A stretch of 64,000 bases of DNA from a virus, in IMG/VR virus record IMGVR_UViG_3300009285_001996; one strand, given 5' to 3'. The notes below the pieces were generated by a model that was not told where the DNA came from, made no database searches, and saw nothing but the letters and a program-made list of their open reading frames with translations. Both the position numbers and the translations under genes were made by a program. Positions 3,271 to 63,000 of this stretch are shown in pieces; the first letter of the stretch is position 1; every line of letters begins with the position of its first letter.

Positions 3271-3302
3271 GTAACGGTTCTAGTTTGTCGAACAAAAAAA
3301 AT

Positions 3303-5626: not shown

Positions 5627-6271
5627 ATGCGCACAATTGAGAAGAAAGTCTATAGCTTCGCTGAACTTTTAGAAATAGAAAAGGCAGAGGGGGTATCGGG
5701 TAGGGTGGTCAATAAGGTAAGATCGTGGTTACAAAACGGAAATCTAGACTGGGATTGGTGGAGTTGTGTAACAGACGATTGGCAGGAAAGGTTAGGGAGG
5801 ATCGGATTTGTGGAGGCGAAAATTGAGTTTAGTGGGTTTGGTTCACAAGGGGATGGGGCGTCATTCACAAGCGAGATAGACCTAGAGAAATTGGCTGGAT
5901 TTTTCAGCGATGCAAATTACGGGGATAAGGATATACAATCAATTCCCCGCTCTATTAACCCGCAATATGGGCGACTATCCACATTAGAATATTACGTCTA
6001 TTCTAGGGTTGTGCGAACTTCTCATCAATATTCACACGAAAATACTTGTCAGGTAGAAATATATCTTGATAATAGAAATGGTAAAGGAGTAGCCGTCCTA
6101 TTATCCCATCTGGAAAATGACGCCCAATCTCTGAGGCTGCGACTCTGTAGATCAATCTATCACGATCTACAATCTGAGTATGATTATCGTTGTTCTGACG
6201 AATGCCTAGTTGACTTCGCGGAAGCCAATCAATACACATTCGATATTCACGGTCATCCAGAATTTTCATAA
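5627..6271 (+). CDS. conserved phage hypothetical protein
   Basis: 214 aa ORF with FSGFGSQGDGASF motif typical of phage early proteins. Confidence 0.5.
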   Translation: MRTIEKKVYSFAELLEIEKAEGVSGRVVNKVRSWLQNGNLDWDWWSCVTDDWQERLGRIGFVEAKIEFSGFGSQGDGASFTSEIDLEKLAGFFSDANYGDKDIQSIPRSINPQYGRLSTLEYYVYSRVVRTSHQYSHENTCQVEIYLDNRNGKGVAVLLSHLENDAQSLRLRLCRSIYHDLQSEYDYRCSDECLVDFAEANQYTFDIHGHPEFS

Positions 6272-6878
6272 TGCCCGTTACTAAAGGCGGACTCGCTAAA
6301 GTGTTGATAATTCTAGAGCGTATGCGTTACCCTTTGAATGTCTTACCCAACCCTTGCGGTCTATAGTCTGGCAGAGTGGCGTAGTCAGCGAATTGGTGGG
6401 CGGTGGCTTGTAGTTATTGGTTTTGCATAAAATTACATTAAAATAATCAGGCGACCACCAAAAGGTAGTCTAGTACGTCCAGTGTTATTTATTCCAAAAC
6501 AATTCTATTTAATAAATTACCCAATTTAACAGTCTGAGAATATTTTCGGGAAAATTTTTATTTTGTTGATTTACCTCAAAACTGGTTTTTGGTAGTATTA
6601 AGCACGAGGGAGATGTATATAAGAAAGGAAAATCGAGAACGAAATGGTAGTGTATTAACTGTTGAGTTAGTAAAAACTAAAGGTAGTAACAAAAGAAACG
6701 AATAGTTACTATTGATTCTTATTGCTTACTAATAATCAGACTTGAGGGGGCTGGACTATGAGACATGCCCACATTCTCCATTTAGCCTAATCTATGGAGA
6801 TTCCCTACCTCGCCCCCCTTATAACTTCCCTGCTATAAAGTATTTTCAAGAAAAATGAAGGCGTGGGAAATAAAACAT

Positions 6879-16682: not shown

Positions 16683-16755
16683 CCGACATTAGTTTAATGG
16701 TTAAAAACAACGTACTTATAATACGTAGAAGATGGTTCGATTCCATCATGTCGGA
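16683..16755 (+). tRNA. tRNA-Ile (anticodon UAU)
   Basis: acceptor CCGACAT/ATGTCGG, D arm GTTT..AAAC, anticodon arm ACGTA-CTTATAA-TACGT, T arm GATGG-TTCGATT-CCATC; CCA not encoded. Confidence 0.85.
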
Positions 16756-21182: not shown

Positions 21183-21630
21183 CCATAAAGTGTGTAGAAC
21201 CTTTTCAGGAGATTGAGAATGTGCCTAAATATTGACTCTAAAAAGACCGACGCCGTAAAATTAAAGTTATCCAAGGATGGTTTTATTATTGGGTATAAGA
21301 TATTGTCATTTTACAACAATGTTTTATCCAGCACTATATTTAATATAAAACCGTGGAAGAATGGATGGAACTTATCATCTAGGAGGGGGGGAACTAAGTT
21401 GATAAAACGAGAAAAAATGTGTCAAGAAATATATCGCGGTATTCATGTTTTTTTAAACCGTCCACCAAAATCATTTATTGGAATTGGTGATTATGTGATT
21501 GTGCGAGTGAAATGTTATCCAAAACATTTTGTTGCGGCGGGTGGTATTTATAGTAAACTACCTGGGGGTGTTTTTACTAAGGTGTTCTTAGATGAAAAAG
21601 ACTACAGAAAGGCTATCGGTGGTTAATTAT

Positions 21631-21960
21631 ATGCAAACCTTCCTGCCCTATCCAGATTTTGTTAAGTCGGTCGAGTGTTTGGATTATCGCCGATTGGGAA
21701 AACAGAGAATTGAGGCTAGGCAAATCCATAACGCTATTCAACCTAACAGTAACAGTAGATGGCGGCACCACCCTATCGTTAAAATGTGGCGAGATCACAC
21801 AAACGCTCTATCGTACTATATTAATTGCGAGATTAAGGAGTGGGTTAGAAGAGGGTACAAAAATAACATGGAATTATTAAAGGTGGTATTTCCCATAGTT
21901 TATCCTCAATGGTTTGTGGAACCAGATAATTTGCCATATGTGTGGTTTACTCAATACTAA
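21631..21960 (+). CDS. MSMEG_6728-family / pyrimidine-dimer DNA glycosylase-like protein
   Basis: MQTFLPYPDF..S...LDYRRLGKQRIEA.QI and HPIVKMW motifs. Confidence 0.8.
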   Translation: MQTFLPYPDFVKSVECLDYRRLGKQRIEARQIHNAIQPNSNSRWRHHPIVKMWRDHTNALSYYINCEIKEWVRRGYKNNMELLKVVFPIVYPQWFVEPDNLPYVWFTQY

Positions 21961-34685: not shown

Positions 34686-34757
34686 GATGTAATGTATAGT
34701 AATGTTACGTTTAGTCGAGTATTGTTTAGTGGAGTGAAGTATATCTGAAAAAGATGT
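34686..34757 (+). ncRNA. pentamer-repeat guide-like unit A
   Basis: gatgt aatgt atagt aatgt tacgt ttagt cgagt attgt ttagt ggagt gaagt + hairpin ATATCT-GAAAA-AGATGT + T-rich tail. Confidence 0.85.
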
Positions 34758-34782: not shown

Positions 34783-35097
34783 ATGGACGATATAAGGTAT
34801 ATAAGAATTGTCGGCGAGGGGGTTGACATTATCTCCAAGGTAGAGTATGATGACCATCAACAGGCGTGGCGGTTGACAAAACCGATGGGTATAATAGTTA
34901 CGGAACAGGGTGTTGGGTTTATGAAATATCCAATGTTTGGTTCTATGCTAATGGTTAGTGGTGGCGATTCAATTTTGATTAAAGATGAGCATATTTTGTG
35001 GATAGAGACTCCTACTACAGAGTTAGAAAATGCTTACAGGGTAAACGTCTTACATGGTATTAGCGTTCCTACTCAGGGATTAGTATTACCAAATTAA
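34783..35097 (+). CDS. small phage protein (possible Sm-like beta fold)
   Basis: ATG after GAAGGTGG; resembles small conserved myophage proteins (..KPMGI..GFMKY..EHILWIETPTTELENAY). Confidence 0.55.
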   Translation: MDDIRYIRIVGEGVDIISKVEYDDHQQAWRLTKPMGIIVTEQGVGFMKYPMFGSMLMVSGGDSILIKDEHILWIETPTTELENAYRVNVLHGISVPTQGLVLPN

Positions 35098-40008: not shown

Positions 40009-40085
40009 TTAGTTACGTCAAGTGATGTATAGCGATGTGGCGTGGAGTATTGTATAGTGAAGTTAAGAATAACCGAAAAGGTTGT
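40009..40085 (+). ncRNA. pentamer-repeat guide-like unit B
   Basis: ttagt tacgt caagt gatgt atagc gatgt ggcgt ggagt attgt atagt gaagt taaga + ATAACC-GAAAA-GGTTGT. Confidence 0.85.
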
Positions 40086-40087
40086 AT

Positions 40088-40264
40088 ATGATAAATGATT
40101 TTGTTATCCTATTTCAAGATTTAGAATCAAATATTATTGAATATGAGTGTAGTGTGTGTGGTGAAGTATTTATTGCAGATTACGCATTAGGAATAAATTT
40201 GGATATAAGTTCTGGCGATAGAGCAAGATGTCCCAATTGTGATAGTGTAGATAATTCATTTTAG
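40088..40264 (+). CDS. small zinc-ribbon protein
   Basis: CSVC ... CPNC; flanked by units B and C. Confidence 0.65.
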   Translation: MINDFVILFQDLESNIIEYECSVCGEVFIADYALGINLDISSGDRARCPNCDSVDNSF

Positions 40265-40322
40265 TGATGTAGAGCGATGTGATGCAGAGTGCTGTTGTGT
40301 TGAGAACATCTGAAAAAGATGT
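40261..40322 (+). ncRNA. pentamer-repeat guide-like unit C
   Basis: ttagt gatgt agagc gatgt gatgc agagt gctgt tgtgt tgaga + ACATCT-GAAAA-AGATGT + T run. Confidence 0.85.
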
Positions 40323-40369: not shown

Positions 40370-40900
40370 ATGAAGAAAATTGTGAGTGTAACTATTAAGG
40401 GAGTTGCTCCACTTTTACTAAATCGCCCATTAACGGACGAGGAAAGTGGTGGTGGTAGCAAAAAGAAAACCGAAATCTTAGCACCAGAACAGAAAGCTAA
40501 CTCCGTCAATTATTTTGATGAGGAAGTTGGTTGTTATGTCCCCAATTCAATGATTAAGGCATCACTGCGAGACGCTAGTAAGAATTTTAAGCGTGGTCGT
40601 GGTAATTATGCCAAGACCCTAAAGGCTAAGTTATTCGTGACTCCAGAAAAGATTCCTCTAAACAAACAAACTTTTGATCTAATCGACCGTCGAGCGGCTA
40701 AGCTACCAACTAACGGAGCAATGATTACAGCTTCTCGCCCAAGATATGAAAATTGGGAGTTGAGTTTTAAGGTTGAATATGATGATACAACTATTGATGA
40801 CAAAACTTTGAGGGAAATTTTTGATGAGGCTGGTAGTTCAACATGTATCGGGAGTTATAGACCGGAGTTTGGAAGGTTTGAAGTTGTTAAGTTTGAGTAA
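40370..40900 (+). CDS. stand-alone Cas7/RAMP-like RNA-binding protein
   Basis: AAGGAG RBS; N-terminal VTIKGVAPLL strand, YVPNSMIKASLRDA (cf. RAMP IPGSSxKGxxR), C-terminal G-loop IGSYRPEFGRFEV. Confidence 0.75.
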   Translation: MKKIVSVTIKGVAPLLLNRPLTDEESGGGSKKKTEILAPEQKANSVNYFDEEVGCYVPNSMIKASLRDASKNFKRGRGNYAKTLKAKLFVTPEKIPLNKQTFDLIDRRAAKLPTNGAMITASRPRYENWELSFKVEYDDTTIDDKTLREIFDEAGSSTCIGSYRPEFGRFEVVKFE

Positions 40901-40917
40901 TATATTAATTTTACCAT

Positions 40918-40985
40918 AATGTCAAGTTAAGTTAAGTGCGGTGTAGTACAGTCTCAGTATAGTCTAGTATACCACAATATGGTGT
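40918..40985 (+). ncRNA. pentamer-repeat guide-like unit D
   Basis: aatgt caagt taagt taagt gcggt gtagt acagt ctcagt atagt ctagt + ATACCA-CAATA-TGGTGT. Confidence 0.8.
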
Positions 40986-41020: not shown

Positions 41021-41092
41021 AATGTACATCGAAGTCAAGTACAGTATAGTCAATTAAAGTGAAGTTTAGTCTAGAATAACCGAAAGGGTTGT
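41021..41092 (+). ncRNA. pentamer-repeat guide-like unit E
   Basis: aatgt acatc gaagt caagt acagt atagt caatt aaagt gaagt ttagt ctaga + ATAACC-GAAAG-GGTTGT. Confidence 0.8.
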
Positions 41093-41094
41093 AT

Positions 41095-41490
41095 GTGTCT
41101 GATTTAATCACTCCATCAATCTTAGATATTAAAGCTGATATAGAGTATTGGTGGAAACAATTTACTATTAAGTTAGAGGTTCCGTTATCTGAATTATTCC
41201 CAGAACCAGAAAAGGGGTGGGTAAAACACATTTGGAAACATGGGTCCGCTGATTTATGCGTCTTTCATAGTAATAAGTTAATATGTATTATCGAGGCGCA
41301 TGGACACCACCATTTTAGTAATAAAAAACAAATAATGAACGATAAAAGAAAAGCTAAATTATGTCAAATTAACAATATTGGATGTTTACAAGTCGCAAAC
41401 AGTGTAAGAGATACAATAGCAAGGAGAAAATGGAGAAGGTTATTGGGTAAATATATATGGAACGATTGTGTGAAGTGTAGTACAGTCTAG
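41095..41490 (+). CDS. Vsr/DUF559-like PD-(D/E)XK-fold nuclease
   Basis: ADLCVF...IIEAHGHHHF...NDKRKAKLCQINNIGCLQV pattern. Confidence 0.65.
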   Translation: MSDLITPSILDIKADIEYWWKQFTIKLEVPLSELFPEPEKGWVKHIWKHGSADLCVFHSNKLICIIEAHGHHHFSNKKQIMNDKRKAKLCQINNIGCLQVANSVRDTIARRKWRRLLGKYIWNDCVKCSTV

Positions 41491-41543
41491 TTGTGTATAG
41501 TCGATTACTGTGCTGTGATGTGTAGAATAGCGGAAAATGCTGT
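41467..41543 (+). ncRNA. pentamer-repeat guide-like unit F
   Basis: tgtgt gaagt gtagt acagt ctagt tgtgt atagt cgatt actgt gctgt gatgt gtaga + ATAGCG-GAAAA-TGCTGT. Confidence 0.85.
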
Positions 41544-41578
41544 AATTATTTTCTTACTTTTAACAATGGAGATTTCTA

Positions 41579-41965
41579 ATGGCAAGTTTTAACAAGGTTA
41601 TTTTGATGGGTAATGCCACTCGTGATGTAGAACTACGGTATATCCCAAGCGGTAAAGCCGTGGCTGACTTATCACTGGCGGTTAATAATCGTCGTAAGAG
41701 TGGTGACGAATGGGTAGAAGACGTAGTGTTTGTAGATTGTACAGTTTGGGGTCGCACTGCGGAAGTTGCTGCGGAATATGTAAAAAAGGGTAAGCCTGTT
41801 TTAGTAGAAGGCAAACTTATTCAAGATAGCTGGGAAACACCAGATGGACAGCGACGTACAAAGTTAAAGGTTGTTGTTGATTCTATGCAATTATTGGGCG
41901 GTAAGCCTCAAGATAACGAAGGCGATACACCAGCAGTTGGTGATGACGACGATTTACCAATCTAG
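41579..41965 (+). CDS. ssb: single-stranded DNA-binding protein
   Basis: [21 protein letters not shown]...WGRTAE...KG.PVLVEG; acidic tail DDDDLPI. Confidence 0.96.
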
Positions 41966-60073: not shown

Positions 60074-63000
60074 ATAGAAACATAACCTTTATCATTAATT
60101 TAGGAGGATGTACTATGGACGTTTCTGAACTATCACTATCAGAGTTGATTTTACTACAAGGTCAAATTGATAATACGATTCAGGTGTTAGTGGCGAATGA
60201 CGGTCTTGAGGAGGAAATCGAATCACTACATGATGGGCTATTAGAAAACCAATACCTAACCATTAAAGTGACCATTCCTGTTGATATTGTGGTATATGAT
60301 ACTAATGGCTGTTGTATTGACATTGTTGAAGACGTCGAAGTTATGGATAGTGTGATTGAGCAAGCTGAAAAACACAAGGACGTGAAAGCTGCAATTAGAA
60401 AAATAGTCCAACAAGAAAGCGGTTTAGACAAGAGTGTTGCTAAATTGGCTAAAAAGTATAGGGTTAGTGAAGAGTTTATTCTAAACAGAGTATATAGAGA
60501 ATAAATGTGAGGTTTTTTATGAAATTCATAGTGAATATAGGTATTGCCGCCTACACAGAAACAGAGGGGCGGCACCCAAACTCCGCTAAAATTACGATTC
60601 CAGTGTGCGCGGATAAAACTGGTTTCACTATCGAGGTTGATTGTGGTGAAAAAGACACCGTTTCACAAATCCAAACTTTATTAGAAAAAATGAGGTTAGC
60701 CTGTGAATAACAACCGTGGGATTGGTTGGCAGAGCGCATTTGACGACGTTATATTCGCCGTACAAAATGACGTGCCAGAGCCAGAATTAACCGTAATTAA
60801 ATGTTCGGCGTGTGGACAAAAATTAATAGAGTTATTTGTGGTGGGAGACGGTCCCACTTCACAGTTAATCGTGGAATGCCCATTCTGTGGGGACAGGTCT
60901 TTTAAAGTTAGTGTACGAGGAGCATTCAAGTTTGCCGCTTGCGATAACGTAGAGATTACAAATATTCAGTATGGCGACAGTATAATTTTTAGTACAAAAA
61001 CATCAAGTTAAGGAGTTATTATGGGCGAACTAGGTTTACATATTATTGATAGCGGTAAACATAATGGGGAAGTTACACAAGAATTAGTGGGATATTCTCC
61101 TGCTCAAATGGTAGGATTACCACCAGAACGGGTAGACGTTGACGATAGGGGGTGTTTTGCCAAGGAATTGACCACAATGAGTGATGGAGTAGTAAAATCA
61201 TCGGTCTATTATTTGCGAATGGGAGTTGGCGGACACTTATTGGACCCTTGGAATATGCTTAATAGTGGTTCTGAGCGTAGTTATGCTAAACATGCAGGAA
61301 AGGATAGTGATAAATTTGTTAAGGTAAATGAGCGGTGTTTTAAGTTTTATATGAGATATTTAACTACTCGTAATAGTGCTAACTACTTAAATGCTGATAG
61401 AGAACTATTTACTGGTTAACCACTAACATAAGTAATTAACTATAGGAGATATAATAATGCGTAAACTAAGTAAGATCGAACAATTTTGGCTAGATGAAAA
61501 CACTGGTAAACTAACCGCAGAGGAAATAGCAGGGGAATTAAAGGGGGTAAGTACAAAGAGTGTGGAAAAGTATTTGGAAAAGTTAGGTTTACAGAATTTG
61601 GAGGTCGAGACCCCAACACCTCAACCAGTGGTGGTGAAAAACGACCAATTTGACCTATCTCCAGGTGATGAACTTATCATAGAGGATAATTACAAGAATG
61701 GTTTGCCGATTCCCACTATTGCCAAACAAATAAATAAAGCAGAAGAAGCCGTTAAAATGTTTATTGCTAGTAAACTTAGGGGGGCTGGTCGTGAGTTTTA
61801 TGGGGGAAAAGGACAAATCTCTAATCGACGAGTCGCTACCGTGATGACCGAAAGAGGAAGTGAACATTCGGATATAGTGGGAGATAGCGGCGGTCCCCAA
61901 AAGACAAGTAATCGTATTCATAAAATTAGAGGATAAATTATGCCAGTAGATAACCATTTACCAGTTAATGACGGTACATGGGCACCAACTGTTAATATAC
62001 CTATACCACCCATTTTTGTGTCCTATCCAAGTGAAGAAATCACAAAATTGGACACCATTATTCAATTATTGAACAGGATTATCGAGTTAATGCAAATGGG
62101 AAAGTAATATAATATGTATAAGATTATTGAAATAGTATTACTTATCTTAGCTTGCATATGTACTTTTTTATCTGGCTATATGGGTCATACCAATTTATTT
62201 GTGGGCGGTTTAATTTTATCAATTCCATATATCGTTAATATGAACAATAAATAATGATAATATGCACTAATCCAAATGACCCCTTCTTACTAGATAAGGA
62301 CACCACAATATGGATAGCCACTCTTTCAGATAACACTCAAATTTTCCAGGATGACAATCGACCAGAGTTAAACGAGCCCTCAGCTTGGCGCAGACTCAAA
62401 ACCTATTTAGGGCAGGAAGGTTTACATATAGTGGGGGTTCACTTTAGGTTTCGCTCACATGTGGTTTCCCTGCCATCATCTCCCCAAAATGAATATTATT
62501 GGAGTAAGGGGGTCGGGGCGGCGTGTGGAGGTCGATCTTCTAACTTCTTTATTTATGGAAGGCGAGAGGGGGACGTACTAATACGCGACTGGTATTCCGT
62601 GCCCGCTATTGTACGATCCCCCCATCTACAACAAACTAATCCTATTGCCGACTTTATCAATCACCCAAACTACATACCAATAATACCGATAAGGATATCT
62701 TTATGCCAGTCAAATCAATGATAGATAAAATATGTGAAACTCAAAATAAATTAGCTGCTGGGGTTGACGATGATGATACCAGAGTGCAAAAATTAGGTAG
62801 ACTTATTCAACAGTACAGAGAAATTACAGATAATGATTACAGCGTTGTAATAGAAGGATTGTCAAATCGGGAAACTTGGCTTTTCGACCACATTTTAACA
62901 CTATTCAAAGTTCCACTGTACTAGGGTTGAAATGGCGGATCATCGTACCGATAAATGCTGTTATCGTAGTTCGTATAGTGATTCCGACCTATATATCACT

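Follow-up and report, generated by a model that had tools for sequence, protein, structure and literature searches.

A candidate VIPR guide ahead of a phage ssb gene fits foreign ssb alleles better than the phage's own

A tract of eleven pentamers (unit F) ahead of the ssb gene of this phage spells a stretch of SSB that natural ssb alleles elsewhere match at 20 of 22 bases (10 of 11 units), compared to 17 of 22 (8 of 11) for the phage's own allele, as a sequence-only reading of the DNA had proposed. We lean towards the view that unit F is a guide for the RAMP-like protein Vipr, perhaps together with the predicted nuclease Vap, against the ssb of competing planctomycete phages, and that the phage's own mismatched copy is likely spared. 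The ssb alleles of other phages are the most likely aim, with the host copy as a possible second target. Of the phage's 171-kb contig, the searches for guides and targets covered the 64-kb window (the whole stretch of DNA analysed here). The features of the locus are as follows.

34688..34757, + strand: unit A, isolated guide of 10 units with a tail, lying 5.6 kb from vipr
34783..35097, + strand: orfA, weak PHROG 527; codons 3-12 fit guide A
40011..40085, + strand: unit B, 11-unit guide with tail
40088..40264, + strand: orfB, zinc-ribbon-like, 58 aa, Pfam matches below cut-off; codons 9-19 fit guide B
40263..40322, + strand: unit C, 8-unit guide with tail, ahead of vipr
40370..40900, + strand: vipr, RAMP-like, 176 aa, G-loop IGSYRPEFGRF; PHROG 4652
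40920..40985, + strand: unit D, 7 units, a 1-nt register slip, 2 further units, weaker tail
41023..41092, + strand: unit E, 10-unit guide with tail, ahead of vap
41095..41490, + strand: vap, 131 aa, predicted Vsr-type PD-(D/E)XK nuclease
41469..41523, + strand: unit F, 11 WGT/NN pentamers, predicted vrRNA guide
41524..41543, + strand: tail of F, AGAAT plus 6-bp hairpin with GAAAA-type loop
41579..41965, + strand: phage ssb, Pfam SSB E 7e-33, planctomycete-like
41735..41766, + strand: partial self-site of F, ssb codons 53-63, 17/22 bases, 8/11 units

Six predicted guides and a VIPR locus

A period-5 scan of both strands of the window returned six tracts, all on the + strand. Unit F is a real feature, as its tract score of 10.8 was reached in none of 100 Markov-resampled windows; the score of the weakest tract, unit E (7.2), was reached in 4 of 100. 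The F pentamers read tgtGA agtGT agtAC agtCT agtTG tgtAT agtCG attAC tgtGC tgtGA tgtGT (41469-41523) and decode to [DE]VTL[CW][IM]RTA[DE]V. Both the dinucleotides and the ssb decoding agree with the sequence-only reading, whose first TG comes from a degenerate GATTG unit preceding the pentamers. A 6-bp hairpin with a 5-nt loop terminates units A, B, C, E and F and is weak in D; in the tail of F it has a stability of -5.1 kcal/mol, equalled in 1 of 200 shuffles. Across the 57 units of all six tracts, 29 start with AGT, 18 with TGT and 1 with GGT, and AT is the second commonest NN (7/57). Unit D is possibly decayed, and the run GT AC CT, common to units D and F, hints at exchange between guides.

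A promoter scan gave 20 sites compared to 9.1 expected, with no clear start for unit F. Elsewhere in the window, a three-copy repeat at 3287, 6863 and 13059 carries TTGACA and TATAAT-like boxes and probably represents strong early promoters. The window also holds one tRNA gene (16683-16755), a 475-aa ORF with a prepilin-type N-terminal motif, an unusual phage cargo (17396-18823), and a 34-nt inverted repeat, 85% complementary, with its arms 40.7 kb apart (21628-21661 and 62397-62430).

Passages of two VIPR preprints describe Vipr as coating GGY/NN repeats, NN as pairing with DNA with every third base skipped, and binding as silencing transcription (bioRxiv 10.64898/2026.04.26.720920,.720927); in SUSP1 the R-loop is described as extending from the tail end (bioRxiv 10.64898/2026.04.26.720927). 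The published criterion for VIPR targets is a match of at least 80%, and VIPR types III-V carry enzyme vaps (bioRxiv 10.64898/2026.04.26.720920). According to passages of a satellite preprint, natural SUSP1 targets read at 89% on average (bioRxiv 2026.10.15.759431). The passages concerned also report self-hits at ≥80% as absent in the clades checked and list satellites, prophages, other VIPRs and REP decoys as targets (bioRxiv 10.64898/2026.04.26.720920, 2026.10.15.759431). By the features assessed here, the window locus is a VIPR system: it has a RAMP-like Vipr with a G-loop, pentamers with NN, a structured 3′ tail, a vap, and a wobble-aligned natural target at 80% or above (20/22 in ssb) in which the 1-nt skip falls on codon position 3.

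The vipr product aligns with SUSP1 Vipr (PDB 36pp) over residues 20-172 (phmmer E 8.1e-12), and vipr as the sole query recovered no close viral relative. A vap search with a five-homologue alignment found 5 viral and 37 metagenome loci, some of them duplicates, and vipr lies beside vap in 36 of the 42. D53, E67, H73 and K86 are invariant in the vap alignment. The sole Pfam signal is DUF2726, below cut-off in 14 of 29 vap proteins, a family that is grouped with Vsr and DUF559 among PD-(D/E)XK nucleases in a published passage (PMC3424549); the Vap profile had no match among PDB sequences. The structures nearest to a Vap model (pLDDT 85.7) were Vsr (Z 10.5, rmsd 2.8, over 105 aligned residues) and the I-Bth0305I catalytic domain (PDB 3r3p; Z 9.8, rmsd 2.8, 96 aligned), with two further structures level with the latter at Z 9.6, one a mitoribosomal chain and the other an endonuclease-like protein of Neisseria. 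On this model Vap is a predicted nuclease that folds like Vsr and I-Bth0305I, and the shared fold is no proof of its activity. The vipr, vap and ssb frames are all open, and each was found unchanged on about 20 contigs.

Within the Vipr G-loop (40850-40890), Ser stands where SUSP1 has Asp D177, the residue described in a passage on SUSP1 as reading the first G of the repeat (bioRxiv 10.64898/2026.04.26.720927). G is the first base in at least half of the repeats at 57 of 58 loci with G-loop Asp; at three loci with Ser, G-first repeats make up 0-2%, and Ser is likewise present at L327, which also has TGT repeats. The Ser loci, among them L131, L132 and L327, represent few independent lineages. 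Several other loci carry related arrangements. On the viral contig with the closest ssb found, GAC/NN repeats come after an ORF distantly similar to Vipr (L209 738-1560). On the minus strand of L306 (11179-11525, G007), two degenerate WGT-type tracts, each with one ORF behind it, lie far from that phage's vipr, whose guides are GGY; these tracts are possibly orphan guides. Long multi-guide arrays occur in the vap clade (L341 1168-2180, L344 4323-5910 and L313 5549-6430) with no Rfam ribozyme match, and no Rfam hammerhead was found in five vap-clade loci.

Unit F and alleles of ssb

With the 1-nt skip, the best F match in the window is to codons 53-63 of the phage's own ssb, 211 nt past the last unit, where the sequence-only reading had placed an 8/11 fit about 200 bp downstream. 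This self-site was reached by 2 and 15 of 1000 shuffles and by 0 of 2000 in the next-gene test, and at skips of 0, 2 and 3 F rose nowhere above 15/22 in the window. The five tail-proximal units match both the phage's ssb and the 20/22 allele in full and unit 6 mismatches both, so that the distal five units discriminate between them (3/5 vs 5/5). The phage SSB is 68% identical to a Pirellulales SSB over 108 columns and lies nearest to Planctomycetota SSBs in a tree, with a weak grouping with a related phage and long branches. The tree places the origin of this ssb in a lineage of the DVTLW type.

Following the earlier suggestion to match the F pattern to Planctomycetota and phage ssb genes, we searched it with unit 6 as a wildcard, dropped after inspection, and examined 8 viral contigs and 120 genome loci, the latter from 19 of 64 database parts (about 420 estimated in total). 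All 128 loci are ssb, in frame, with 10/11 units and 20/22 bases matched. The codon start at unit 6 is GG in 116, GC in 7, GA in 3, AA in 1 and TC in 1 of these alleles, and AT in none of the 128. An exact 11/11 F site was found neither in metagenome contigs nor among the 128 loci, nor did a relaxed W[IM]RTAEV pattern yield one in viral contigs. The Val and Leu of F are residues of the common allele, and its Ile/Met stands against the Gly of that allele. As unit 6 mismatches in 128 of 128 and the R-loop of SUSP1 starts from the tail end, a 10/11 allele may be engaged only partly.

By a hand count of record titles, the 120 genome loci comprise about 98 Planctomycetota, 16 Verrucomicrobiota and 6 other. 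Chromosomal 20/22 sites sit in pth-rpsF-ssb-rplI operons: of the 80 cellular loci whose flanks are long, pth is present at 77, rpsF at 64 and rplI at 59, and at least one of the three at 78, compared to none of the 8 viral loci. DVTLWGRTAEV is the usual allele in the Pirellulales, to which Novipirellula rosea belongs: a match with at most 3 mismatches occurred in 67 of 101 genomes (reversed control 2; a few rows not ssb), including 32 rows at 2 mismatches by hand count. Across the phylum the figure was 12 of 301 (control 3), of which 7 read as ssb, seed included. The notion that this motif is usual in planctomycetes therefore holds for the Pirellulales and does not extend to the phylum.

Viral alleles of this kind are scarcer. 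We scored 80 viral ssb genes related to that of the phage: two reach 20/22, one each reaches 18 and 17, and 60 stand at 8. Five viral 20/22 carriers that we examined share only ssb with the window (one also a methylase) and have no second guide target beyond chance. The one clear relative of the phage, a 160-kb phage with 31 shared proteins and its ssb directly before vipr, scores 12/22 against F and has the same Cys as the window phage, so this difference seems to be characteristic of the lineage. We found no sibling phage whose ssb allele fits better. The sequence-only reading had suggested that the phage may silence or cut the ssb of the host or a rival while its own recoded copy escapes. 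Our results favour the rival over a cellular target, as 8 phage contigs fit equally at 20/22 and units A and B fit phage-type genes, and lend the escape of a recoded copy weak support.

Guides and the genes behind them

Units A and B also fit the gene that follows them. Guide A matches orfA codons 3-12 (DIRYIRIVGE) at 15/20 bases (75%; 5 of 2000 shuffles), and guide B matches orfB codons 9-19 (FQDLESNIIEY) at 16/22 (73%; 6 of 2000). That both fit phage-type genes right behind them points to a rule by which guides address alleles of the neighbouring gene, and makes it likely that these sister repeats are guide RNAs against rival versions of that gene. C, D and E showed no fit to vipr and vap.

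The window and 80 vipr loci together supplied 101 distinct guides, five of which reached p≤0.01 in the next-gene test: F, B, two of L136 and one of L138. Restricting the test to 37 distinct vap-clade guides with sufficient downstream DNA (classes counted by hand), 6 of 13 guides with an ordinary gene behind them reached p≤0.01, compared to 0 of 24 with vipr or vap behind them. Five fits lie in open frames, those of A, B, F and two L136 guides (20/30 and 21/28), and these five cassettes come from only two genomes. L343+6332 (p 0.009), whose matched frame is interrupted by a stop, was not counted as a cassette, nor was L138+3319 (p 0.002). The five self-matches range from 67 to 77%, under the 80% target criterion, and the sites lie 46-211 nt behind the guides. 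This spacing ahead of a homologue of each guide's own target suggests that position matters, a signature of homing and allele exclusion. The two L136 guide-plus-gene cassettes (5629-6432; the same as L314 and L340) precede small CxxC proteins, like orfB.

The mismatches within these cassettes look like homologous protein sequence. Over the 27 mismatched units of the five cassettes, BLOSUM scores exceeded two nulls and were more conservative than random (P 0.014-0.048), although no single cassette was significant and F alone gave P 0.6-0.8. For guide A, at three clearly aligned mismatch positions in eight distant homologues, the guide residue occurs in 13 of 24 cases and the phage's own in 1 of 24 (hand count).

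Searches for foreign targets of the other guides were negative. The exact A pattern had no viral match, and orfA and orfB had no close homologue. No target was found for guide B, whose relaxed pattern gave 6 viral matches, none in an orfB-like frame. In 151 Pirellulales-order genomes guide B had 4 matches at 3 mismatches, which we rejected as about the expected number by estimate; two of the four fall in what we take to be dCTP-deaminase-like genes. Matches of E and B in the related phage (16/20 and 17/22) were likewise rejected, with about 2 expected in 160 kb by estimate, and no target was found for units C and E.

Possible roles of the guides and comparison with known systems

If unit F acts against rival ssb alleles, the guides would each derive from, or be maintained against, a foreign version of the following gene, and each would travel as a cassette with the mismatched allele of its own phage. 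The isolated position of unit A, 5.6 kb away from vipr, agrees with such an arrangement. Upon co-infection the rival's copy would be silenced, or cut with Vap; if cut, repair from the carrier could copy both the guide and the resistant allele, as in intronless homing, and a host chromosomal ssb, which fits equally well, might be hit as a by-product. This reading draws on the Vipr match, the self-fit of F above chance, the finding that 128 of 128 loci are ssb with 8 of them viral, the in-frame next-gene fits of A and B, the 6/13 vs 0/24 contrast and the Vap fold. Against it stand the searches that found no better sibling allele, no 11/11 site and no target for A or B, the origin of the five cassettes from only two genomes, and the occurrence of 20/22 sites in only 2 of 80 viral ssb relatives while they are common in Pirellulales chromosomes. 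More tentatively, and with a chance well below even, the system could be RNA-programmed homing in which Vipr recognises and Vap cuts, making the 75-nt guides minimal gene drives that convert rival alleles; as F reads a motif shared with Pirellulales chromosomal ssb, an operon essential to the host would then be struck by this guide as well.

Could the host gene be what F is kept for? F would then silence or cut chromosomal ssb so that the phage SSB replaces the host's, with polar effects on rplI or damage to the chromosome. The 20/22 sites are indeed mostly chromosomal, as the operon genes around 78 of 80 flanked cellular loci and the 32 two-mismatch rows in 101 Pirellulales-order genomes attest, and the phage's own ssb lies directly behind F. 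The phage SSB being nearest to those of Planctomycetota makes a host with a 20/22 allele plausible, and together with the equal fit of the chromosomal allele this keeps the idea open. A and B, however, follow the same next-gene rule on phage-type genes, with guide B at about chance in Pirellulales-order genomes. Unit 6 never matches, and the published passages list satellites, prophages, other VIPRs and REP decoys as targets. As SSB is abundant and stable, silencing its gene late would probably bring little benefit. We consider this explanation unlikely.

Somewhat less probable still is that the guides are weak self-regulators or relics, once or partly matched to the gene behind them and damping its expression. 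Guides lie directly upstream of the matched gene, and the five tail-proximal units of F match the phage's ssb in full, at the end where R-loops are described as starting; as this ssb comes from a DVTLW-type lineage, F may simply keep the ancestral state. Yet the mismatches lean to the family consensus and are not random, the obvious genes for autoregulation, vipr and vap, are never matched (0/24), and self-targeting would be costly with a nuclease partner. Decay of F from a former perfect match to a DVTLWGRTAEV allele, disabled when unit 6 was overwritten, we regard as improbable. AT is common enough among the NN for repeat-to-repeat conversion to have supplied unit 6, and D has its register slip and C only 8 units, but the tail of F is intact, vipr, vap and ssb are open and recur unchanged, and the 89% average of natural SUSP1 targets in the satellite preprint passages speaks against the need for a perfect match. 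Finally, one unit was dropped after inspection, and six guides and four skip rules were tried, which could have produced the F-ssb fit by chance. A chance origin is effectively refuted by 128 of 128 matches in one family and frame and by 67 genomes compared to 2 in the reversed control, and the independent ssb match in the window adds to this; we give it next to no weight.

F offers a pair of natural sites, the phage's own at 17/22 and a foreign one at 20/22, and is the first candidate found for a VIPR guide from a phage with a fit to an essential gene of the host. The next-gene layout bears on the acquisition and spread of such guides. If the predicted activity holds, so small an RNA-guided nuclease system (176 + 131 aa), blind to the wobble base, would also be of interest as a tool.

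Among known systems, the window repeats hold no CRISPR-Cas-like repeat-spacer array with contiguous spacers, and Rfam returned only a tRNA. The VIPRs of SUSP1 and a P. fulva prophage share with the locus a Vipr homologue, pentamers with NN, a 3′ tail, the wobble skip, a vap and a self-match below 80%; guides that target vrRNAs also show a lower self-match than rival-match in passages of the satellite preprint (bioRxiv 2026.10.15.759431), in which the term 'ssb' is absent. The locus differs from published VIPR in its WGT/NN rather than GGY/NN repeats, simple hairpin tail and Vsr-type vap. It also differs, as far as the published passages go, in its dispersed guides, each before a gene whose homologue it spells, and in best natural matches that include an essential chromosomal gene. 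Non-canonical VIPR arrays (WGT/NN and GAC/NN) likewise place WGT/NN beside a Vipr-like fold, in passages that treat repeats and folds and not targets or cassette layout (bioRxiv 10.64898/2026.10.21.760802). The main-text passages of the literature on VIPR, homing and self-targeting that we drew on held no account of neighbour-allele guides or ssb targets.

The mode of action, on our reading, would most resemble intronless homing. The free-standing endonucleases of T4 (segF/56, segG/32 and mobE/nrdB) are described in published passages as making their cut in related phages, within the gene they adjoin and hundreds of bases away from where they are inserted, and as spreading by repair, with marker exclusion as a result (PMC2988022). 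Like these, each guide lies beside a gene whose homologue it would attack, and the Vap fold is near that of I-Bth0305I. Unlike them, the specificity would come from an RNA guide via Vipr, and a single nuclease would serve several distant cassettes.
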